DNA from: a virus
DNA length: 27,823 nucleotides
Virus genome (UHGV): UHGV-0038965
Direction: 5' to 3' (one strand)
Of the stretch, positions 146-23,086 are shown one piece after another. The notes under the pieces are model-generated. The model ran no database searches. It worked only from the letters and a program-made list of their open reading frames with translations, and was not told the DNA's origin. Position 1 is the first letter of the stretch. Every line of letters starts with the position of its first letter. The position numbers and the translations under genes were made by a program.

Positions 146-1205
146 CAATTTTGTCCCACTCCCTGCCTCTGTCATCACGATACTGTGATGCCATGGTGTC
201 CGACTTATGCCCGAGAAGATGTTGAGCAAACTTATCGCTTATCTGCTTCTCATAGAGTCTTGCAGACAAACTGCGCAACTCGTGAAAGGTAGGCGGATCC
301 CCTTCGAAGGAAAGACCTGATGCTTTTCGTGCGCGCATAAAATACCTTGATACTGTGCCGGATGAAAGCGGTTCACGACGAGTAGATGCAATTATGGTTT
401 CTCCGCCAAGAATCTCTTTGCATTTATCAAGTGTTTCCTTCATTGATATCCCGAGAGCATCAACATGCAATGTTGTTGGGATGGCAATTTTTACGCCTGT
501 TTTGCTTTGCTCGACATAAAGATATCCATCTACGATATCAGACCACTTCATTTCGCATAAATCACCAACTCGTTGCCCGGTAACAACAGCCAGTTCCATT
601 GCAAGTCTGAGCCAACATGGTGATGATTCTGCTGCTTGATAAATTTTCAGGTATTCGTCAGCCGTAAGTCTTGATCTCCTTACCTCTGATTTTGCTGCGC
701 GAGTGGCAGCGACAGGGTTTGTTGTTATATGGCCTTCAGCTATTGCCTCTCGGAATGCATCGCTCAGTGTTGATCTGATTAACTTGGCTGACGCCGCCTT
801 GCCCTCGTCTATGTATCCATTGAGCATTGCCGCAATTTCTTTTGTGGTGATGTCTTCAAGTGGAGCATCAGGCAGACCCCTCCTTATTGCTTTAATTTTG
901 CTCATGTAATTTATGAGTGTCTTCTGCTTGATTCCTCTGCTGGCCAGGATTTTTTCGTAGCGATCAAGCCATGAATGTAACGTAACGGAATTATCACTGT
1001 TGATTCTCGCTGTCAGAGGCTTGTGTTTGTGTCCTGAAAATAACTCAATGTTGGCCTGTATAGCTTCAGTGATTGCGATTCGCCTGTCTCTGCCTAATCC
1101 AAACTCTTTACCCGTCCTTGGGTCCCTGTAGCAGTAATATCCATTGTTTCTTATATAAAGGTTAGGGGGTAAATCCCGGCGCTCATGACTTCGCCTTCTT
1201 CCCAT
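135..1205 (-). CDS. int: Tyrosine integrase Int (lambda-type, 356 aa)
   Basis: 356-aa ORF whose translation (MGRRRSHERRDLPPNLYIRNNGYYCYRDPRTGKEFGLGRDRRIAITEAIQ...) matches lambda Int as I recall it. It lies immediately beside the att core and overlaps xis. Confidence 0.97.
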   Translation of the reverse strand: MGRRRSHERRDLPPNLYIRNNGYYCYRDPRTGKEFGLGRDRRIAITEAIQANIELFSGHKHKPLTARINSDNSVTLHSWLDRYEKILASRGIKQKTLINYMSKIKAIRRGLPDAPLEDITTKEIAAMLNGYIDEGKAASAKLIRSTLSDAFREAIAEGHITTNPVAATRAAKSEVRRSRLTADEYLKIYQAAESSPCWLRLAMELAVVTGQRVGDLCEMKWSDIVDGYLYVEQSKTGVKIAIPTTLHVDALGISMKETLDKCKEILGGETIIASTRREPLSSGTVSRYFMRARKASGLSFEGDPPTFHELRSLSARLYEKQISDKFAQHLLGHKSDTMASQYRDDRGREWDKIEIK

Positions 1206-1401
1206 TTCTGATCCTCTTCAAAAGGCTACCTGTTACTGGTCGATTTAAGTCAACCTTTACCGCTGATTCGTGGAACAGATACTCTCTTCCATCCTTAACC
1301 GGAGGAGGGAATATCCTGCACTCGCGTACCCATCGACGAACTGTTTCAAGGCTTCTTGGGCGTCGCTGGCGTGCGTTCCACTCCTGAAGTGTCAAGTACA
1401 T
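1183..1401 (-). CDS. xis: Excisionase Xis (72 aa)
   Basis: 72-aa ORF MYLTLQEWNARQRRPRSLETVRRWVRECRIFPPPVKDGREYLFHESAVKVDLNRP..., the lambda Xis sequence and length; 3' end overlaps the int start as in lambda. Confidence 0.95.
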   Translation of the reverse strand: MYLTLQEWNARQRRPRSLETVRRWVRECRIFPPPVKDGREYLFHESAVKVDLNRPVTGSLLKRIRNGKKAKS

Positions 1402-1440
1402 CGCAAAGTCTCCGCAATTACACGCAAGAAAAAACCGCCA

Positions 1441-1608
1441 TCAGGCGGCTTGGTGTTCTTTCAGTTCTTCAATTCGAATATTGGTTATGTCTGCATGTGC
1501 TATCTGCGCCCATATCATCCAGTGGTCGTAGCAGTCGTTGATGTTCTCCGCTTCGATAACTCTGTTGAATGGCTCTCCATTCCATTCTCCTGTGACTCGG
1601 AAGTGCAT
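1441..1608 (-). CDS. Small hypothetical protein (55 aa), positional equivalent of lambda orf55
   Basis: My own translation of the minus strand gives MHFRVTGEWNGEPFNRVIEAENINDCYDHWMIWAQIAHADITNIRIEELKEHQAA. It is below the 60-aa cutoff of the ORF track. Its stop overlaps a hairpin plus T-run (ccgcc-tgat-ggcgg-tttttt on the minus strand). Confidence 0.4.
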   Translation of the reverse strand: MHFRVTGEWNGEPFNRVIEAENINDCYDHWMIWAQIAHADITNIRIEELKEHQAA

Positions 1609-1696
1609 TTATCATCTCCATAAAACAAAACCCGCCGTAGCGAGTTCAGATAAAATAAATCCCCGCGAGTGCGAGGATAGTTACTTGTTCATATTA

Positions 1697-1996
1697 TTAA
1701 TCGTCAATGTATTTTGAGCATTGTGGGCAATCATCGATCCCACAATACGATTCATATGCATCCTTTATTGCGTCGCGGGCTTCAGTAAGAGTATTGAATA
1801 AGTTGCAGCTATTATCTTTTTGATATAGGTAAGTTCCTAATTTATAAGCAGAAGAAGCATCATTTCCGCTGTCTAAAATTACATCGTTATGGATTCTGCA
1901 CCTTGCAAGAACTCCTGATCCCATAAGGGTCTGCATAGCCCATTGCTCTTGATCTTCACACAAATCATGAATGCTCATTTCAACACCTCTCTTCAC
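1697..1996 (-). CDS. Ea8.5-like Cys-rich small protein (the real start may be the internal Met at 1978)
   Basis: 99-aa ORF in the lambda ea8.5 position with motifs SGVL..C, SAYK and C..C.K.IDD that resemble lambda Ea8.5 as I recall it. AT-rich, with an AT-rich promoter-like region upstream (1997-2092). Confidence 0.55.
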   Translation of the reverse strand: MKRGVEMSIHDLCEDQEQWAMQTLMGSGVLARCRIHNDVILDSGNDASSAYKLGTYLYQKDNSCNLFNTLTEARDAIKDAYESYCGIDDCPQCSKYIDD

Positions 1997-2092
1997 GTTT
2001 CACACACGTTAAGATTAACAGTGTTTTTACATGCTTTGGGAGATTTATTTTATAAAAACTCTTTTAATACAAATAGATATAATAGTTCACTA

Positions 2093-2890
2093 TTATAGCT
2101 CCTTTAATCGAGGCGGTTCTGGTAGAGGCATCCAGTGGGTTACACCGCCAATTGGCTCATCGTCGTCGTACTCCAATGCGGCTATATAGAACCCGTCACG
2201 ACGAGAATAAGAAATCCCGGACATTACAATGCCATCCGAAACAACAATAATGTCACCCGTTTCTTTCGGCATTCGCTCACTACAGCTTATCCAACCATCC
2301 GGAGTCACCGGAAGCGAGAACGGCAGCACATCTCTGTGAACAAGTTTTTGCTGTGACAGGTTATCCAGAACTTTCTGTACTGCTGCATCACCGAATACAC
2401 CAAGCGCATCTGCCATAACTCCTACAACCTGATAAGCCTCAGCGCATACCGTGGATAAACCATCCGGAATTACCGGAGAGTTGCCGGGTTCTTTAATGTG
2501 CAAGCGAGGCTCACCATCTTTTGGTTCAGGCCACTGGCGCTCCATGTTGATCTTCAATTTATCTTCCATAGCAGCGGTAATTTCAGCATCGCTGATGCCA
2601 GCACGGCGCTGTGCATCCCACAACAGGAAATGCATATCAGCCCACTCGCTGAGATCGTCTGGTTCGGCTGCGGCTTCCAGAGCCTCTTTTGAGAGGTGTT
2701 TCAGTGGACCAATGGGGCCAACGCAGCCAAATGTGGAGTCAGACCATTTGGCATGCTCGTGGCGAATCAGTTCGCGTTCCAGTGATGCCAGTGCAATTCG
2801 TGCCAGTTCCATTTGTTCGCCACGAGTAAGCCCGTTTTCAAGCGGATTTTTAATGAACAATTCAATACGTTCTTTGGTAATAGTGGTCAT
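2093..2890 (-). CDS. Hypothetical modular early protein (265 aa) with a C-terminal DUF551-like segment
   Basis: Long ORF with good coding character. The C-terminal GVTHWMPLPEPP segment is typical of the prophage DUF551 family. Its N-terminus (MTTITK...RIALASLE) and an NSPVIPDG segment recur in the product of 12884-13690. Confidence 0.6.
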   Translation of the reverse strand: MTTITKERIELFIKNPLENGLTRGEQMELARIALASLERELIRHEHAKWSDSTFGCVGPIGPLKHLSKEALEAAAEPDDLSEWADMHFLLWDAQRRAGISDAEITAAMEDKLKINMERQWPEPKDGEPRLHIKEPGNSPVIPDGLSTVCAEAYQVVGVMADALGVFGDAAVQKVLDNLSQQKLVHRDVLPFSLPVTPDGWISCSERMPKETGDIIVVSDGIVMSGISYSRRDGFYIAALEYDDDEPIGGVTHWMPLPEPPRLKEL

Positions 2891-2900
2891 TTGTTAGTCC

Positions 2901-3656
2901 TTAAACTGCTAGTTGCAATTGCATTTCAAAGCGGTCGCGTTGTTCACAATACGCAAGAGAACCAGGGCTATTGTGTGCCTCAATCCGTTCTACCATTAAT
3001 GCTGCGCGTGTCTCTTTACTTGCAGGTGCATAAGCCCCAGACCAGGCTTTATCAATACCGATGTTTCGAGCGACGTTCGTACTATCTGCGCTGGCTAAGG
3101 GTAATTTTGTGAATATCAGCGGATTTAACATGCGCAATCCATGTAGTTTCGTAACCGGCTGACCATGCCCATCAACAATGTGACGAATCAGGTCTTTCAT
3201 TCTGGCTACCGCAAGAGTTGGGCGCTTTACGTCATAGTCGCCACAACTACCGATAGCCACTCGCGGAAACTCATTGCACAAATGAATAAATCGCGCGTCA
3301 CTTTCATTCATGTGCCACACTGGAACGCCAGCTAGTTTTCCGTGAGGCCACTCATTCAGAAGCGCATCATTTTCCTCCTCTCCGCCATCAATAATATCCG
3401 GGATAATGGCAAAATCGAATCCTGGGTGATTCTTCCAGCGAGCAACAAACTCGTAGTAATCGCTCCAGTCGATTTTGTTTTTGCCAGCTGCTTTCCAGGC
3501 GGTGAATGCACCGTTGTCCAGCGCGAACGACTGACAGTATTCAGCCGCGAGATTGATCTGGCCTGAATGCGCAAAACTGATAAACGCATGTCGCCCTTTC
3601 CATGCTCTCATTGCGCACGTATCAGGAGTAATAGGCCCACCGTGGTAGTGAATCAT
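2901..3656 (-). CDS. Hypothetical protein (about 251 aa), function unknown
   Basis: ORF 2901-3698 in the track. The preferred start is the ATG at 3656 (MIHYHGGPITPD...), which is preceded by AGGAG and sits next to the stop of the upstream gene. Contains an acidic stretch, DFAIIPDIIDGGEEEND. No family recognised with confidence. Confidence 0.55.
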   Translation of the reverse strand: MIHYHGGPITPDTCAMRAWKGRHAFISFAHSGQINLAAEYCQSFALDNGAFTAWKAAGKNKIDWSDYYEFVARWKNHPGFDFAIIPDIIDGGEEENDALLNEWPHGKLAGVPVWHMNESDARFIHLCNEFPRVAIGSCGDYDVKRPTLAVARMKDLIRHIVDGHGQPVTKLHGLRMLNPLIFTKLPLASADSTNVARNIGIDKAWSGAYAPASKETRAALMVERIEAHNSPGSLAYCEQRDRFEMQLQLAV

Positions 3657-3657
3657 C

Positions 3658-4065
3658 TCACTCTCCTTTGATGCGAATGCCAGTAGCGCGGATTGCATCG
3701 ATGACTTCAGAAACTTTGTATGCCATTACCGTTTGGTAATCATCGTGAAAATCTGTTCGATGAAGCATGCTGCTACGTTCCGGGAGCAGTATTTCCCGCG
3801 CTTCCAGTTCTGCAATGCGCTTTTTTGCTGCTTCCAGTTCATCCAGTAATTCCAGCACGGTAGCCGGATTAGCCTTGGCAACAAAATCCCGGACTGGCTT
3901 ACAATCAATCTCCGCAATGGGTTGATACGATGTGTAGCCATGCTGTCTTGTATAACTACCGTGACGAATAACGAAAAAATCACCATTTATTTTTTTAGCC
4001 TGCCACTTATCTTCACCGGCTTTCTCTGCCGCTTCACGCAGTGCCTGAGAGTTAATTTCGCTCAC
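3658..4065 (-). CDS. Ea22-like protein (135 aa)
   Basis: N-terminus MSEINSQALREAAE and C-terminus GIRIKGE resemble lambda Ea22. Shares the motif ANPATVLELLDELEA with the product of 12474-12887. Confidence 0.7.
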   Translation of the reverse strand: MSEINSQALREAAEKAGEDKWQAKKINGDFFVIRHGSYTRQHGYTSYQPIAEIDCKPVRDFVAKANPATVLELLDELEAAKKRIAELEAREILLPERSSMLHRTDFHDDYQTVMAYKVSEVIDAIRATGIRIKGE

Positions 4066-4283
4066 TTCGAACCTCTCTGTTTACTGATAAGCTCCAGATC
4101 CTCCTGGCAACTTGCACAAGTCCGACAACCCTGAACGACCAGGCGTCTTCGTTCATCTATCGGATCGCCACACTCACAACAATGAGTGGCAGATACAGTC
4201 TGGTAGTTCAGACGACGCATTTTTATTGCTGTGTTGCGCTGTAATTCTTCAATTTCTGATGCTGAATCAATGATGTCTGCCAT
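4062..4283 (-). CDS. TraR/DksA-family C4 zinc-finger protein (73 aa)
   Basis: Four cysteines in CCECGDPIDERRR...GCRTCASCQE, the C4 spacing and length typical of phage and plasmid TraR-like proteins. Overlaps its neighbours by 4 bp. Confidence 0.7.
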   Translation of the reverse strand: MADIIDSASEIEELQRNTAIKMRRLNYQTVSATHCCECGDPIDERRRLVVQGCRTCASCQEDLELISKQRGSK

Positions 4284-4381
4284 CTTCCATTAATCCCTGA
4301 ATTGTTGGTTAATACGCTTGAGGGTGAATGCGAATAATAAAAAAGGAGCCTGTAGCTCCCTGATGATTTTGCTTTTCATGT

Positions 4382-4663
4382 TCATCGTTCCTTAAAGACG
4401 CCGTTTAACATGCCGATTGCCAGGCTTAAATGAGTCGGTGTGAATCCCATCAGCGTTACCGTTTCGCGGTGCTTCTTCAGTACGCTACGGCAAATGTCAT
4501 CGACGTTTTTATCCGGAAACTGCTGTCTGGCTTTTTTGATTTCAGAATTAGCCTGACGGGCAATGCTGCGAAGGGCGTTTTCCTGCTGAGGTGTCATTGA
4601 ACAAGTCCCATGTCGGCAAGCATAAGCACACAGAATATGAAGCCCGCTGCCAGAAAAATGCAT
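4382..4663 (-). CDS. Hypothetical small early protein (possibly starting at the internal Met, about 71 aa)
   Basis: ORF within the tightly packed leftward operon; no family recognised. Confidence 0.4.
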   Translation of the reverse strand: MHFSGSGLHILCAYACRHGTCSMTPQQENALRSIARQANSEIKKARQQFPDKNVDDICRSVLKKHRETVTLMGFTPTHLSLAIGMLNGVFKER

Positions 4664-4673
4664 TCAGTGGTTG

Positions 4674-5027
4674 TCATACCTGGTCTCTCTCATCTGCTTC
4701 TGCTTTCGCCACCATCATTTCCAGCTTTTGTGAAAGGGATGCGGCTAACGTGTGAAATTCTTCGTCTGTTTCTACTGGTATTGGCACAAACCTGACTCCA
4801 ATTTGAGCGAGGCTATGTGCCATCTCGATACTCGTTCTTAACTCAACGGGAGATGCTTTGTGCATACAGCCCCCCCATTTATTATTTATCTCCTCAGCCA
4901 GCCGCTGTGCTTTCAGGGGATTTCGGATTACAGAAAGGCCGGGAAATACCCAGCCTCGCTTTGTAACGGAGTAGACGAAAGTGATTGCGCCTACCCGGAT
5001 ATTATCGTGAGGATGCGTCATCGCCAT
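4674..5027 (-). CDS. Hypothetical protein (117 aa) in the lambda orf60a/orf63 position immediately downstream of exo
   Basis: Position directly after exo, overlapping the exo start region by 10 bp. May be a fusion of two small lambda-like ORFs; not verified. Confidence 0.45.
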
Positions 5028-9509: not shown

Positions 9510-10049
9510 ATGCAACCACTTACATACCAACAGACTAGCGGATTTATTCCGACTGCGGTGATAAATCGTTCTCAAACAAAACAAGCTCCAGGCCACGAAA
9601 AAATCCGTGATGCCGTCCGCGCCTGGTCGGCTGTAGATAATCAGGATGTCGTTGCCGCACTCATTGTGAATGAGTATCGGGAGCAGGGCGACGGCACCAT
9701 CGATTTCCCTGATGATGTCAGCCGTGCACGCCAGAAGCTGTTCCGCTTCCTCGATAACAAATTCGATTCTGAAAAATACCGAAATAACGTGCGTGAACTG
9801 ACCCCGGCAATTCTGGCGGTACTACCGCTGGAATATCGCGGTTACCTGGTTGAGCAGGATAGCTTCATGACTCGGTTGGCTGAAATGGAAAAGGAACTCA
9901 GTGAGGCAAAACAGGCTGTCATTCTCAACGCACCACGCCACCAGAAACTGAAGGAAATGAGTGAAGGTATTGTGTCGATGTTTCGTGTGGACCCGGATCT
10001 GGCTGGTCCATTAATGGCGATGGTGACCACCATGCTGGGGGCAATATGA
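9510..10049 (+). CDS. YdaT-like regulator (functional analogue of CII), 179 aa
   Basis: Lies between cro and the replication genes, with SD AAGGAG. Resembles Rac YdaT-family proteins from memory (LTPAILAVLP motif). Not lambda CII. Confidence 0.55.
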   Translation: MQPLTYQQTSGFIPTAVINRSQTKQAPGHEKIRDAVRAWSAVDNQDVVAALIVNEYREQGDGTIDFPDDVSRARQKLFRFLDNKFDSEKYRNNVRELTPAILAVLPLEYRGYLVEQDSFMTRLAEMEKELSEAKQAVILNAPRHQKLKEMSEGIVSMFRVDPDLAGPLMAMVTTMLGAI

Positions 10050-14682: not shown

Positions 14683-15138
14683 GTGAACCTCCCACAAGAC
14701 GGCATCAAACTACATCGCGGCAACTTCACCGCTATCGGCCAGCAGATCCAGCCTTATCTGGAGGACGGAAAATGCTTTCGCATGGTGCTTAAACCGTGGC
14801 GTGAGAAACGCAGTCTTTCCCAGAATGCACTCAGCCACATGTGGTACAGCGAAATCAGTGAATACCTCATCAGCAGGGGTAAAACGTTCGCCACTCCAGC
14901 TTGGGTAAAAGATGCTCTCAAACACACATATCTCGGTTATGAAACCAAAGACCTGGTTGATGTCGTAACCGGTGATATCACCACTATCCAGTCGTTACGC
15001 CATACCTCCGACCTTGATACCGGAGAGATGTATGTCTTCCTGTGTAAGGTTGAAGCCTGGGCGATGAATATTGGCTGCCACCTGACTATTCCGCAGAGCT
15101 GCGAGTTCCAGCTGCTGCGTGATAAGCAGGAGGCGTAA
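14683..15138 (+). CDS. ninB: NinB/YbcN-family protein (DNA-binding recombination protein), 151 aa, GTG start
   Basis: Resembles DLP12 YbcN/NinB as I recall it; GGAGG SD upstream; position at the head of the nin cluster. Confidence 0.75.
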
Positions 15139-16808: not shown

Positions 16809-17891
16809 TTAGAACTGGTAAACCATACCTACAGCAACGATATCATCGGTAGCAACGCCAGATGCTTTCGTGAAATCGCTCTTATCAATCAGGTTGATTT
16901 TGTAGTCAACAAAAGTGGACATATTTTTGTTGAAGTAATAGGTTGCACCTACATCAACATATTCAACCAGGTCCTGATCACCCCAAACACCCAAGTCTTT
17001 TCCTTTAGAATGCAGGTAAGCAACGGATGGACGCAGGCCGAAGTCGAACTGATATTGTGCAACAGCTTCGAAGTTTTGTGCTTTGTTGGCAATATGGTTA
17101 TTACCAAAAACAGTCATGTTCTGGGTTTCAGAATAGGTGGTGGCCAGATAGATGTTGTTCGCATCATATTTCAGACCAGCTGCCCATACTTCAGCATTTT
17201 GACCAGAAGCATTCAGACCGTTGTTACCGTAGATAACCTGATTATTAGTGCGATCAGATTTAGCATAGGTTGCACCCACGCCGAATCCTTCATACTCATA
17301 AGTAGTTGAGAAACCGAAACCATCGCCATTAGCTTCAGTTACTTCATTTCGGTCATTTTTGCCCTGATACTGAGCTGCAAAGTTCAGGCCATCAACCAGA
17401 CCAAAGAAGTCGTTGTTACGATAAGTTGCAACACCTGTGGTGCGACCAGTCATGAATACATCTGTTTGGGTCCAGGTATCGCCACCGAATTCTGGCAGAA
17501 CGTCAGTCCACGCACCGATGTCGTATGCTACACCGTAGTTACGGCCGTAATCGATTGAGCCGTAGTCACCGAATTTCAGGCCTGCAAATGCAAGACGGGT
17601 TTTGTCTTTGGAGGAACCTTGAGATTCAGCGCGGTTGCCTTTGAATTCATATTCCCACTGACCGAAACCAGTCAGTTGATCGTTGATTTGGGTTTCACCT
17701 TTGAAGCCAAGACGGGCATAAGTAGTATCACCATCATCTGCATCATTAGAGGAGAAGTAGTGCTTAGCATTAACTTTCCCGTACAGATCCAGCTTGTTAC
17801 TGTCTTTATTATAAATTTCAGCTGCCTGAGCAGACATCGCCATCAGTACTGATGCAGCTACAGCAGAAATTGCCACTGTTAATTTTTTCAT
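16809..17891 (-). CDS. nmpC: Outer-membrane general porin of the OmpC/NmpC/Lc family (360 aa), lysogenic-conversion moron
   Basis: Signal peptide [23 protein letters not shown], a C-terminal ...VGMVYQF beta-barrel terminal motif, and overall similarity to enterobacterial porins. Lies opposite in orientation between Q and the lysis genes, as in DLP12 and PA-2. Confidence 0.92.
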
Positions 17892-19756: not shown

Positions 19757-21232
19757 TTGAAAGAATATTTAGATATGAATACATCTCATGTAAGAGTTGT
19801 TACTCATATGTGTGGGTTCCTGGTTTGGCTCTATAGTCTTTCAATGTTGCCACCAATGGTTGTAGCATTGTTTTATAAAGAAAAAAGCCTGTTCGTTTTC
19901 TTTATAACTTTCGTTATATTTTTTTGCATTGGTGGCGGAGCGTGGTATACAACTAAGAAATCTGGCATTCAATTACGTACCCGTGATGGGTTTATTATAA
20001 TTGTAATGTTTTGGATTTTGTTTTCTGTTATTAGTGCATTCCCTTTATGGATTGACTCAGAACTTAATTTAACGTTCATTGATGCTCTGTTTGAAGGGGT
20101 TTCTGGAATAACAACAACAGGAGCAACTGTAATTGATGATGTTAGTTCATTACCTCGGGCATATTTGTACTATCGGTCACAGTTAAATTTTATAGGTGGT
20201 TTAGGAGTTATTGTTCTGGCGGTTGCTGTATTGCCATTATTGGGTATTGGTGGTGCAAAGCTTTATCAGTCAGAAATGCCGGGGCCATTTAAGGATGACA
20301 AACTCACTCCCCGCCTGGCCGATACGTCACGGACACTGTGGATAACTTATTCTTTATTAGGTATTGCTTGTATTGTCTGTTATAGACTTGCAGGAATGCC
20401 TTTGTTTGATGCTATTTGTCACGGGATTTCCACAGTTTCGCTTGGTGGTTTCTCAACTCATAGCGAGAGTATCGGATATTTTAATAACTATTTGGTTGAG
20501 CTGGTGGCTGGTTCTTTTTCCCTGCTATCGGCTTTCAACTTCACTCTTTGGTATATTGTTATTAGCAGGAAAACGATAAAACCTTTAATCAGAGATATTG
20601 AACTTCGTTTCTTTCTGTTAATAGCCTTAGGGGTGATCATTGTTACCTCTTTCCAGGTCTGGCATATAGGTATGTATGACTTGCATGGAAGTTTTATTCA
20701 TTCGTTTTTTCTTGCCAGCTCCATGCTCACTGATAATGGTTTAGCTACGCAGGATTATGCAAGTTGGCCCACGCACACGATAGTGTTTTTGCTGTTGTCA
20801 AGTTTCTTTGGGGGATGTATAGGTTCAACTTGTGGTGGAATTAAGTCACTTCGATTTCTTATACTTTTCAAACAAAGCAAACACGAGATAAATCAGCTTT
20901 CTCATCCCAGAGCGTTGTTGAGTGTAAATGTAGGAGGGAAGATAGTTACAGATCGTGTAATGAGGTCTGTATGGAGTTTCTTTTTTCTTTATACTCTCTT
21001 CACGGTGTTTTTTATACTGGTGTTAAATGGTATGGGATATGATTTTCTTACATCATTTGCAACAGTGGCTGCATGTATTAATAATATGGGATTAGGTTTT
21101 GGGGCTACTGCATCGTCATTCGGAGTGCTTAATGACATTGCAAAATGTTTAATGTGCATAGCTATGATTCTTGGTCGCCTTGAAATTTATCCTGTTATTA
21201 TATTGTTTTCAGGTTTTTTTTGGCGCTCCTAA
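19757..21232 (+). CDS. trkG: TrkH/TrkG-family potassium uptake membrane protein (491 aa), moron
   Basis: Polytopic membrane protein with repeated GxG selectivity-filter-like segments (GITTTGATV, GIGGAK, GGFSTH, GSTCGGIK). Strongly AT-rich. Lies after Rz, where the Rac prophage has trkG. Confidence 0.85.
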   Translation: MKEYLDMNTSHVRVVTHMCGFLVWLYSLSMLPPMVVALFYKEKSLFVFFITFVIFFCIGGGAWYTTKKSGIQLRTRDGFIIIVMFWILFSVISAFPLWIDSELNLTFIDALFEGVSGITTTGATVIDDVSSLPRAYLYYRSQLNFIGGLGVIVLAVAVLPLLGIGGAKLYQSEMPGPFKDDKLTPRLADTSRTLWITYSLLGIACIVCYRLAGMPLFDAICHGISTVSLGGFSTHSESIGYFNNYLVELVAGSFSLLSAFNFTLWYIVISRKTIKPLIRDIELRFFLLIALGVIIVTSFQVWHIGMYDLHGSFIHSFFLASSMLTDNGLATQDYASWPTHTIVFLLLSSFFGGCIGSTCGGIKSLRFLILFKQSKHEINQLSHPRALLSVNVGGKIVTDRVMRSVWSFFFLYTLFTVFFILVLNGMGYDFLTSFATVAACINNMGLGFGATASSFGVLNDIAKCLMCIAMILGRLEIYPVIILFSGFFWRS

Positions 21233-21369: not shown

Positions 21370-22161
21370 ATGAGCGAGAAATTAAAGATAGTCTATCGCC
21401 CATTACAAGAATTGTCACCGTATGCGCACAACGCCAGGACGCACAGCCCTGAGCAGGTGGCACAACTGGTAGAAAGTATTAAGCAATTCGGCTGGACTAA
21501 TCCGGTGCTGATTGACGAAAAGGGCGAAATTATTGCGGGTCACGGTCGTGTTATGGCGGCTGAAATGCTCAAAATGGATTCTGTTCCGGTCATTGTTCTG
21601 TCTGGCCTGACGGATGAGCAGAAAAAGGCGTACCGCCTGGCAGATAATCGCCTGCCGATGAATGCTGGCTGGGATGAAGATCTGTTGCGGATGGAGCTGT
21701 CGGACCTAATCAATGCTGATTTTGATGTCTCCCTGACAGGCTTCATCCCGACAGAAATTGATGAACTGTTGACGGATGTTTTGCCCGGTACAGGAAATGA
21801 GGAGGAGCCGTATACGACGAAAATTGATACGCCTGTTTATGAGCCGTCGGGCGGTAAACCGGATATCAGTGAACTGTACGACGATACGAAAACTCAGGAG
21901 CTGATCAGCCGGATACGTTCGGCGTCCCTTGAGCCTGATATTGAGAAATTCCTCCTGTGTGCGGCAGAACGTCACACGGTGTTTAATTTCAGCAGAATTG
22001 CGGACTATTACGCTCACGCCCCCTCTGAAATTCAGTGTTTTTTCGAGGAGTCGGCGCTGGTGATCATTGATTATCAGCAGGCTATTGAAAATGGATTTGT
22101 CCGGATGACGCAGCGCATGGTGGAGATCATGCATGGTGGTGAGGAGGAGGAATATGCGTGA
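21370..22161 (+). CDS. ParB/Srx N-terminal-domain protein (ParB-like nuclease/NTPase fold), 263 aa
   Basis: IIAGHGRVMAA matches the ParB GxxRxxA motif; an acidic C-terminal region follows. The stop overlaps the next gene by 8 bp. Confidence 0.75.
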   Translation: MSEKLKIVYRPLQELSPYAHNARTHSPEQVAQLVESIKQFGWTNPVLIDEKGEIIAGHGRVMAAEMLKMDSVPVIVLSGLTDEQKKAYRLADNRLPMNAGWDEDLLRMELSDLINADFDVSLTGFIPTEIDELLTDVLPGTGNEEEPYTTKIDTPVYEPSGGKPDISELYDDTKTQELISRIRSASLEPDIEKFLLCAAERHTVFNFSRIADYYAHAPSEIQCFFEESALVIIDYQQAIENGFVRMTQRMVEIMHGGEEEEYA

Positions 22162-23086
22162 TGATTTTTGCGCCTTTATTCTGACTCACGGGCGACCGGA
22201 CAAAGTTCTGACTTACCGGACGTTGCGTCGTGCTGGCTATACCGGGAAAATTTTTATCGTTGTTGATGATGAAGATAAGACACGGAATCAGTACATGGCT
22301 GAATTTGGTGAACAGGTGCTGGTGTTTTCCAAAGCCGATATCGCCAGTCGTTTTGACGAAGCCGATAATTTCTGTGACCGCCGCTCAATTTTTTACGCCC
22401 GTAATGCCTGTTTCGACCTGGCAAAACTGGTCGGGTGTAAATACTTCATTCAGCTCGATGATGATTATCACGAGTTCCAGTTTCGGGTGGATCGCAACTA
22501 TGACCAGGCCTATTTTCCGATAAGGAAACTGGATGCGATCCTTTCTGAAATGCTGGCGTACTACGAATCAATACCTGCTCTTTCCATCGCTATGTCGCAG
22601 GGCGGGGATTTTCTTGGTGACAATGGCGGCCATGCTTCGTGGGTGAAACGCAAGGCAATGAACAGCTTTATCTGTTCGGTTGATCGACCGTTCTCATTCA
22701 TGGGGCGCATTAACGAGGATGTGAATACGTACACGAATCTCGGTCGCTGTGGTGAATTGTTTATGACGATCGGTGCTGTCCAGTTAGGGCAGAAACAGAC
22801 GCAGAAAAACAGCGGCGGAATGACCGAGCTGTATCTGGATTCCGGAACCTACGTTAAAAGTTTTTACTCCGTCATGTATGCGCCGTCGTGCGTAAAAATC
22901 TCACTGATGGGTGCCAGCCATAAACGCATTCACCATCAGGTCACCTGGAACAACGCTGCAGTAAAAATCCTTCACGAAAAATACAGGAAGAAGACACCCT
23001 GCATATCAATGGGGATGACAAATGATTCCGTATTCGAAAGTCGAGTCTCTGGCAGCGTGCCGGATGACTGCACAACAAATCGCTGA
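22154..23086 (+). CDS. Hypothetical protein with GT-A-like features (putative nucleotide-sugar transferase), about 310 aa
   Basis: The N-terminal strand-helix-strand pattern ends in FIVVDDED, and a DXD-like motif sits in YFIQLDDDY. SD GAGGAGGAGG precedes the ATG at 22154 (the track ORF starts at 22133). Fold assignment is an inference from motifs only. Confidence 0.55.
   Translation: MRDDFCAFILTHGRPDKVLTYRTLRRAGYTGKIFIVVDDEDKTRNQYMAEFGEQVLVFSKADIASRFDEADNFCDRRSIFYARNACFDLAKLVGCKYFIQLDDDYHEFQFRVDRNYDQAYFPIRKLDAILSEMLAYYESIPALSIAMSQGGDFLGDNGGHASWVKRKAMNSFICSVDRPFSFMGRINEDVNTYTNLGRCGELFMTIGAVQLGQKQTQKNSGGMTELYLDSGTYVKSFYSVMYAPSCVKISLMGASHKRIHHQVTWNNAAVKILHEKYRKKTPCISMGMTNDSVFESRVSGSVPDDCTTNR

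Follow-up and report, generated by a model that had tools for sequence, protein, structure and literature searches.

A predicted singleton DpdA and a mosaic DUF550-DUF551 protein in the early-left operon of a lambda-like Escherichia coli prophage

Gene content and operon setting

The window analyzed was the whole 27,823-nucleotide stretch of UHGV virus genome UHGV-0038965. Two accessory genes lie next to each other on its minus strand: a dpdA-like gene of 251 amino acids (aa) at 2901-3656 (-), which begins with an ATG at 3656 and is predicted to encode a DNA guanine/7-deazaguanine transglycosylase; and a gene for a 265-aa mosaic accessory protein of the EaA type at 2093-2890 (-), which contains PF04447 and PF04448. 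The pair is flanked upstream by an Ead/Ea22-like gene of 135 aa (3658-4065, -; PF13935, E 2.6e-17; phrog_1667) and downstream by a lambda ea8.5-like gene (1697-1996, -; PF20735, E 1.1e-15; phrog_6325). This is the arrangement given by the first-pass annotation, which described two open reading frames (ORFs) between the ea8.5-like and Ea22-like genes of the early-left operon.

Upstream of dpdA are Ea22-like, DksA/TraR-like, exo, bet, and gam genes, and downstream of the accessory block are ea8.5-like, orf55-like (phrog_676), xis, and int genes. In E. coli MIN9 and RM14721, matching prophage DNA occupies the lambda attachment site, with ybhC on one side and bioA on the other. Both accessory genes belong to the early-left (pL) operon of this lambda-like prophage, which is integrated at attB-lambda. 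A promoter scan of the minus strand from 1200 to 4800 found no sigma-70-like promoter, and no promoter-like coding-strand site splits the two genes off from the pL operon.

Terminator-like sites were more numerous in the 1200-4800 interval than expected (11 observed vs 3.4 expected). On the coding strand, terminator-like hairpins bracket the accessory block at 4343-4361 (-), upstream of the DksA-like gene, and at 1628-1678 (-), where two hairpins follow the ea8.5-like gene. Because of these bracketing hairpins, transcription of dpdA is likely dependent on N antitermination.

The in-frame ORF of the 251-aa gene extends further, to 3698. Within the start context (3657-3667, -), an AGGAG read from the sequence (3667-3663) stands six bases before the ATG, and the TGA of the Ea22-like gene (3660-3658) lies one base ahead of it, an arrangement that fits translational coupling within the pL transcript. 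Nearly all full-length homologues among those listed were 247-256 aa long; all 34 homologues of alignment A1 shared a (M/V)IH(Y/F)HGG N-terminus; and independent gene callers had also called both the 251-aa and the 265-aa products in public assemblies. The start chosen earlier from the AGGAG and the abutting stop agrees with these lengths, N-termini, and calls. Both genes are real, conserved genes and not chance ORFs.

Family assignment of the 251-aa protein

The first-pass annotation could assign no family to the 251-aa protein. That statement no longer holds, given a PHROGs match to phrog_887 (“queuine tRNA-ribosyltransferase”; E 2.6e-101), DpdAs of 92% identity in Salmonella phages BTP1 and SPN3UB, and an alignment to the DpdA of phage CAjan. 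Beyond BTP1 and SPN3UB, tblastn against phage genomes revealed relatives with 98% identity in an Stx1a-converting phage, 67% identity in SfI, and 35-38% identity in four phages: HK106, SEN1, Pantoea phage MED16 (DpdA, E 3e-27), and Salmonella phage 7-11 (DpdA, E 5e-16). Seven of these phages (BTP1, SPN3UB, SfI, HK106, SEN1, MED16, and 7-11) are recorded as encoding DpdA in Supplementary Data 1 of Hutinet et al. (2019), where they are listed without preQ0 or G+ synthesis genes. In that survey, the gamma-proteobacterial singletons formed their own similarity cluster, and a possible divergence of function was noted for them.

When 1.84 billion representative proteins were searched with a profile, 1506 clusters were returned at E <= 1e-3. 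The family alignment (A2), comprising 59 sequences and reaching down to 31% identity, aligned with CAjan DpdA over 172 columns (hhalign probability 98.9%, E 2.8e-17); in phage CAjan, deletion of dpdA abolishes dPreQ0. The 251-aa protein had no Pfam match even at E <= 10, and NCBIfam and PADLOC scans were also empty. Against PDB sequences, phmmer and two profile searches gave only noise. The family profile likewise gave no signal against a single E. coli Tgt sequence (hhalign probability 1.9%), so the link to the tRNA-guanine transglycosylase (TGT) superfamily rests on the CAjan DpdA alignment and the fold comparison. By sequence homology, the 251-aa protein is a singleton phage DpdA, a member of the DNA 7-deazaguanine transglycosylase family within the TGT superfamily.

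The earlier annotation had set homology to a housekeeping-type enzyme against an anti-defence role. Such homology was found insofar as the protein belongs to the tRNA-guanine transglycosylase superfamily, but it is superficial only: the branch in question has phage DNA as its substrate and is linked to anti-restriction.

Predicted active site and fold

Five residues are predicted to be catalytic: D47 in the LDNGAF motif (codon 3518-3516, -), D87 (codon 3398-3396, -), H115 (codon 3314-3312, -), H172 (codon 3143-3141, -), and D191 in the SADS motif (codon 3086-3084, -). D47 and D191 were invariant in 59-65 diverse sequences, as were H172 and S192 in the family, while D87, H115, E118, and G136 were nearly invariant in the DpdA family alignment. 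The hhalign alignment paired LDNGAF with LDSGAF and SADS with SCDS of CAjan DpdA, and H115, G136, and H172 aligned as well. In bacterial DpdA, D95 is the general acid/base and D256 the nucleophile, and alanine substitutions of these residues abolish guanine exchange (PMC10164549).

D87 was conserved in at least 90% of sequences and sits at the end of a beta-strand, which makes it a candidate for the base-recognition role held by D130 of bacterial DpdA and D156 of TGT; the hhalign register, however, places the Asp of CAjan DpdA opposite D90, not D87. The acidic stretch DFAIIPDIIDGGEEEND pointed out by the first-pass annotation is present at residues 81-97 and is read here as a strand plus loop carrying the conserved D87; it is a predicted active-site loop.

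The Zn-binding CxCxxC...H motif and the conserved Cys/His cluster were absent from the 251-aa protein, which ends 60 residues past the nucleophile. CAjan DpdA likewise has neither the Zn-binding cluster nor a Pfam TGT match; therefore these two absences separate phage DpdAs from TGTs and do not exclude membership of the superfamily. An AlphaFold2 model built from a 65-sequence alignment reached a pLDDT of 92 (74 with a shallow alignment) and, in fold comparison, was closest to Cap10, bacterial DpdA, and TGTs. The predicted fold is a minimal TGT-like TIM barrel of the singleton type.

The 265-aa protein

The 265-aa protein consists of an N-terminal module (residues 1-41), a DUF550 domain (residues 42-137; 2480-2767, -), a linker, and a DUF551 domain (residues 199-260; 2111-2296, -), each matched by separate PHROGs. 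The modular architecture and DUF551 C-terminus described earlier were borne out (PF04448, E 7.3e-14; 52.8 bits vs a cutoff of 22). The DUF550 domain, which the earlier annotation missed, matched PF04447 at E 1.1e-41 (141.4 bits vs a cutoff of 23; 96 of 97 profile positions), an all-alpha, MazG-like dATP/dGTP pyrophosphohydrolase family. It carries the ExxE...ExxD metal-binding motif (E69xxE72...E82xxD85) and is ~75% identical to the DUF550 domain of BTP1 EaA. In PMC12884076, dATP/dGTP pyrophosphohydrolase activity is cited for the homologue from Acinetobacter phage SH-Ab 15497, an enzyme that does the job of MazZ in 2-aminoadenine phages. From its sequence, the DUF550 domain of the 265-aa protein is predicted to convert dGTP/dATP to dNMP and PPi.

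The full-length combination occurred in 57 E. coli genomes and pieces of it in 2794 of 5426; the exact 265-aa protein was indexed in 2631 blocks of an assembly collection. PGAP annotated the uninterrupted 265-aa ORF in two pieces (L002 6093-6890): a CDS of 206 aa, and a pseudogene fragment of 40 aa flagged “incomplete”. This split probably arose artefactually from homology-guided calling, the gene being mosaic with an N-terminal module from a different EaA lineage.

Distribution and genomic context of dpdA

The 251-aa gene was present in 204 of 5426 complete E. coli genomes (3.8%), in 188 of them at >=99% identity. RefSeq labels it “hypothetical protein” in these genomes, and RefSeq phage records call near-identical orthologues queuine tRNA-ribosyltransferase. 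No literature report testing a lambdoid DpdA was found.

Among temperate phages, dpdA recurs in early, often int-proximal accessory regions (BTP1, SfI, Eeyore, HK106), and in the P2-like phage SEN1 it lies immediately upstream of the replication gene. The neighbours of dpdA relatives were quite different in SfI, Eeyore, HK106, SEN1, and Vibrio phage D453, as they were in almost all of 62 genome loci inspected. Some relatives adjoin Dam or ParB-methyltransferase genes and terminase. In Paraburkholderia sp. HD33-4 (L061 8001-13477), a 51%-identical DpdA is clustered with QueC, FolE, QueD, and a radical-SAM QueE-like gene.

The gene order in the Paraburkholderia cluster was DpdA, a hypothetical gene, ParB_N, a second DpdA1-like ORF of 306 aa with the DpdA-like motif LVDSGAFTAW, and then the preQ0-pathway genes. 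Its ParB_N protein was 44% identical over 168 aa to the ParB_N protein of the window, and the combination of two DpdA paralogues with a ParB-like protein is reminiscent of bacterial DpdA/DpdB. Fusions were also seen among the relatives. P0254 is a QueD(PTPS)-DpdA fusion that looks intact, and in P0074 an Ea22-like N-terminus reads through into DpdA. Both domains were truncated in the Dam(D12)-DpdA fusion P0240, which is likely a deletion chimera and supports gene adjacency only; P0155 (an N-terminal DpdA fragment with DUF551) and P0267 were disregarded as chimeric products.

ParB_N gene and other prophage cargo

At 21370-23086 (+) in the window, the gene for a 263-aa ParB_N protein (PF02195) overlaps the start of the gene for a 317-aa protein that matches PF20691 (“TET-associated glycosyltransferase”; E 8e-35). 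Both genes are immediately upstream of the terminase small subunit, and no TET/JBP gene was seen; they may constitute a second module for DNA modification in the prophage. In phages, such ParB_N domains were found mostly as DNA methylase fusions (387 phage records).

The ParB_N gene is 18 kb from dpdA and is absent from BTP1, which carries the orthologous DpdA. Of 62 loci, 6 had ParB_N homologues no more than 8 kb from dpdA; the two examined, in L043 and L063, are ParB-methyltransferase fusions, and that of L061 is a stand-alone ORF. It is unlikely that the prophage ParB_N protein is a DpdB-like partner of DpdA.

Other cargo in the window included a gene for a YdaT_toxin-domain protein beside the cI/cro region (9510-10049, +), a gene for a YbcN-like “DNA base-flipping protein” (14683-15138, +), an OmpC/NmpC-type porin gene on the opposite strand (16809-17891, -), and a gene for a TrkG potassium transporter, located between the lysis and ParB_N genes (19757-21232, +).

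Proposed mechanism, base supply, and role

E. coli makes preQ0 for queuosine. None of folE, queD, queE, and queC was annotated in the matching prophages, in the prophage part of the window, or in the complete BTP1 genome. With preQ0 genes missing from the prophage part of the window, the 7-deazaguanine base would have to come from the host. The probable explanation of the locus as a whole is a phage DpdA working with a host-supplied base beside a neighbour that is an independent accessory gene. The DpdA chemistry of the 251-aa protein is inferred by analogy with relatives at 35-38% identity.

Upon prophage induction, dpdA would be transcribed from pL together with the recombination genes. The 251-aa enzyme would be a stripped-down TIM barrel acting on double-stranded DNA, in which D191 may attack C1' of the target deoxyguanosine, displacing guanine and leaving a covalent enzyme-DNA intermediate, as modelled on bacterial DpdA and TGT. 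D47 would serve as general acid and base, and a 7-deazaguanine base, supplied by queuosine synthesis in E. coli in the form of preQ0 or of ADG, the amide of preQ0, would then resolve the intermediate. Phage 7-11 carries dADG at 0.02% of G, and phage MED16 carries dADG at 0.13% of G with dPreQ0 almost absent. By analogy with these two phages, ~0.02-0.13% of guanines might be replaced, probably at a specific motif, with dADG as the end product. Exchange would be post-replicative, at low density, on phage DNA in lytic growth. The neighbouring 265-aa gene would be an independent mosaic accessory gene whose DUF550 domain is predicted to turn dGTP/dATP into monophosphates.

The likeliest benefit, which we only infer, would be that phage DNA is shielded from some restriction-type defence. 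Protection from restriction is made less likely by MED16, whose DNA was cut by all Dam-insensitive restriction enzymes tested. An anti-defence role for the 251-aa gene is a plausible guess.

Alternative interpretations

The alternative that comes closest to the phage DpdA reading keeps the family and changes the function: a diverged singleton DpdA might, while still able to bind DNA and flip guanine, insert another base (ADG directly, CDG, or another purine analogue), or act mainly as a glycosylase or regulator, instead of inserting preQ0. This divergence was raised by the authors of the family survey themselves (Hutinet et al., 2019), and several points agree with it, namely that phages with only a singleton-type DpdA carry dADG, not dPreQ0, and do so without DpdC; that DpdA2 enzymes are promiscuous for preQ0, preQ1, and CDG; and that the loop of the 7-substituent pocket reads G136-S-C-G vs GGMVG in CAjan. 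Functional divergence of this kind nonetheless seems unlikely: all catalytic residues required for base exchange are invariant, and genes of the preQ0 pathway are found fused to relatives or in clusters with them. A minimal TGT that acts on tRNA and reprograms Q34 of host or phage tRNAs during infection is quite improbable. Its basis is the TGT superfamily membership, the database label “queuine tRNA-ribosyltransferase” on relatives, and the tRNA-Asn encoded by BTP1, a carrier of the orthologue, as Asn tRNAs are Q-modified. There was, however, no Pfam TGT match at E <= 10; the Zn subdomain and the TGT C-terminal parts are absent from the 251-aa protein; the nearest validated relatives act on DNA; the genomic neighbours are DNA methylase and terminase genes; and tRNA genes are absent from the window. 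(BTP1 encodes tRNA-Thr as well as tRNA-Asn, at L081 36889-37041.) We give hardly any weight to a Cap10-like enzyme conjugating 7-deazaguanine to protein instead of nucleic acid: Cap10 exceeded bacterial DpdA by a structural margin of 0.8 Z units, the neighbourhood contains neither a QueC-like Cap9 gene nor a CD-NTase gene, PADLOC gave no match, and the relatives at the sequence level are phage DpdAs.

It is very improbable that the two genes form one module in which the DUF550 pyrophosphohydrolase adjusts the purine nucleotide pool for DpdA modification. The order Ea22-like, DpdA, DUF550 protein is shared with BTP1, DUF550 genes were found 1-3 kb from dpdA in loci L018, L036, and L039, and DUF550 enzymes of 2-aminoadenine phages serve a base-replacement pathway. 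Against this, DUF550 was not beside dpdA in SfI, Eeyore, HK106, SEN1, D453, or ~59 of 62 genome loci; pieces of the 265-aa protein occur in about half of E. coli genomes vs 3.8% for dpdA; and base exchange by DpdA follows replication and does not need dNTP hydrolysis. Genomic context rules out the DUF550 protein as an obligate DpdA partner. With DUF550 within 3 kb of dpdA in 3 of 62 loci and no need for dNTP hydrolysis, the adjacency of dpdA and the 265-aa gene is treated as a mosaic neighbourhood and not as a module.

ADG is an enzyme-bound intermediate of host QueC. A more specific conjecture, to which we attach little probability, is that lambdoid and P22-like singleton DpdAs are not weak inserters of preQ0 but motif-specific enzymes that insert ADG directly at a few dozen sites per genome, which copy the “self” mark of the bacterial Dpd restriction-modification system or block another sequence-specific defence, maybe with the ParB_N protein of the prophage standing in for DpdB. 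If true, ~4% of E. coli strains would carry, in their singleton DpdAs, a 7-deazaguanine equivalent of the orphan Dam methylases of phages.

Standing and significance

The family assignment is already known: in 2019, near-identical orthologues had been listed as DpdA, and the families of both genes are catalogued ones. The main value of the favoured reading, a phage DpdA with a host-supplied base, is corrective. A “hypothetical protein” of 204 complete E. coli genomes and of an Stx1a-converting phage can be confidently annotated as a DpdA-family DNA transglycosylase, and prophages carrying the 251-aa gene are flagged as candidates for 7-deazaguanine DNA modification. This bears on restriction, on defences that target modified DNA (GrwAB, Dag glycosylases), on nanopore base-calling, and on phage engineering. 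A lambda-like E. coli prophage is also far more tractable than MED16 or 7-11 for work on the role of singleton DpdAs and the origin of dADG.

Comparison with known systems

The closest known group is that of the gamma-proteobacterial singleton DpdAs, the “third group” of Hutinet et al. (2019) and the “DpdA/TGT_1” cluster of the MED16 paper. Its members include Salmonella phages BTP1, SPN3UB, 7-11, and SEN1, phages SfI and HK106, and Pantoea phage MED16. The window protein shares with them the motifs LDNGAF, IPD(V/I)I, (V/T)WH, (I/F)G(S/C), HGLR(M/A)L, and (S/T)ADS. Most are of similar size (~235-275 aa), the phages have no preQ0 genes, and the BTP1 gene, at 92% identity, has the same Ea22-like and DUF550 neighbours. 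Nothing material differs between the window protein and this group; the window copy is carried by a lambda-like prophage of E. coli at attB-lambda. The members with chemistry are 7-11 and MED16 only, which are 35-38% identical and non-lambdoid, and MED16 is described as lytic.

DpdA1 of the Queuovirinae (CAjan, 9g, Bas24) has a homologous core in which the two Asp, the His, and the Gly-loop positions align, and its substrate is DNA after replication. CAjan DpdA has 306 aa with a C-terminal extension, is encoded with FolE, QueD, QueE, and QueC, and converts ~30% of G to dPreQ0, whereas the window DpdA is shorter, stands alone, and would be expected to modify far <1% of G. At 413 aa, bacterial DpdA (S. 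Montevideo, PDB 7UI4) is larger and contains four insertions as well as a Zn site; it depends on DpdB, a ParB-like ATPase, and occurs together with DpdC and the dpdD-K restriction genes. The structural Zn2+ site and the large Ins8 insertion are absent from the window protein, and no dpdB or dpdC-K partner lies beside its gene, where the neighbours are Ea22-like, DksA-like, and DUF550.

The TGTs (bacterial TGT and archaeal ArcTGT; PF01702) gave no Pfam or profile-sequence match and act on another substrate, and their Zn subdomain and tRNA-binding parts are absent from the window protein. Cap10 of type IV CBASS resembles it at the level of fold only, as the Cap9 (QueC-like) and CD-NTase neighbours and a PADLOC match were absent. 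DUF550/MazZ-type systems have PF04447 in common with the 265-aa protein, but no PurZ or other part of a 2-aminoadenine pathway is present here. In the 265-aa protein, unlike MazZ-type and EaA proteins, DUF550 shares the chain with DUF551 and a swapped-in N-terminal module.
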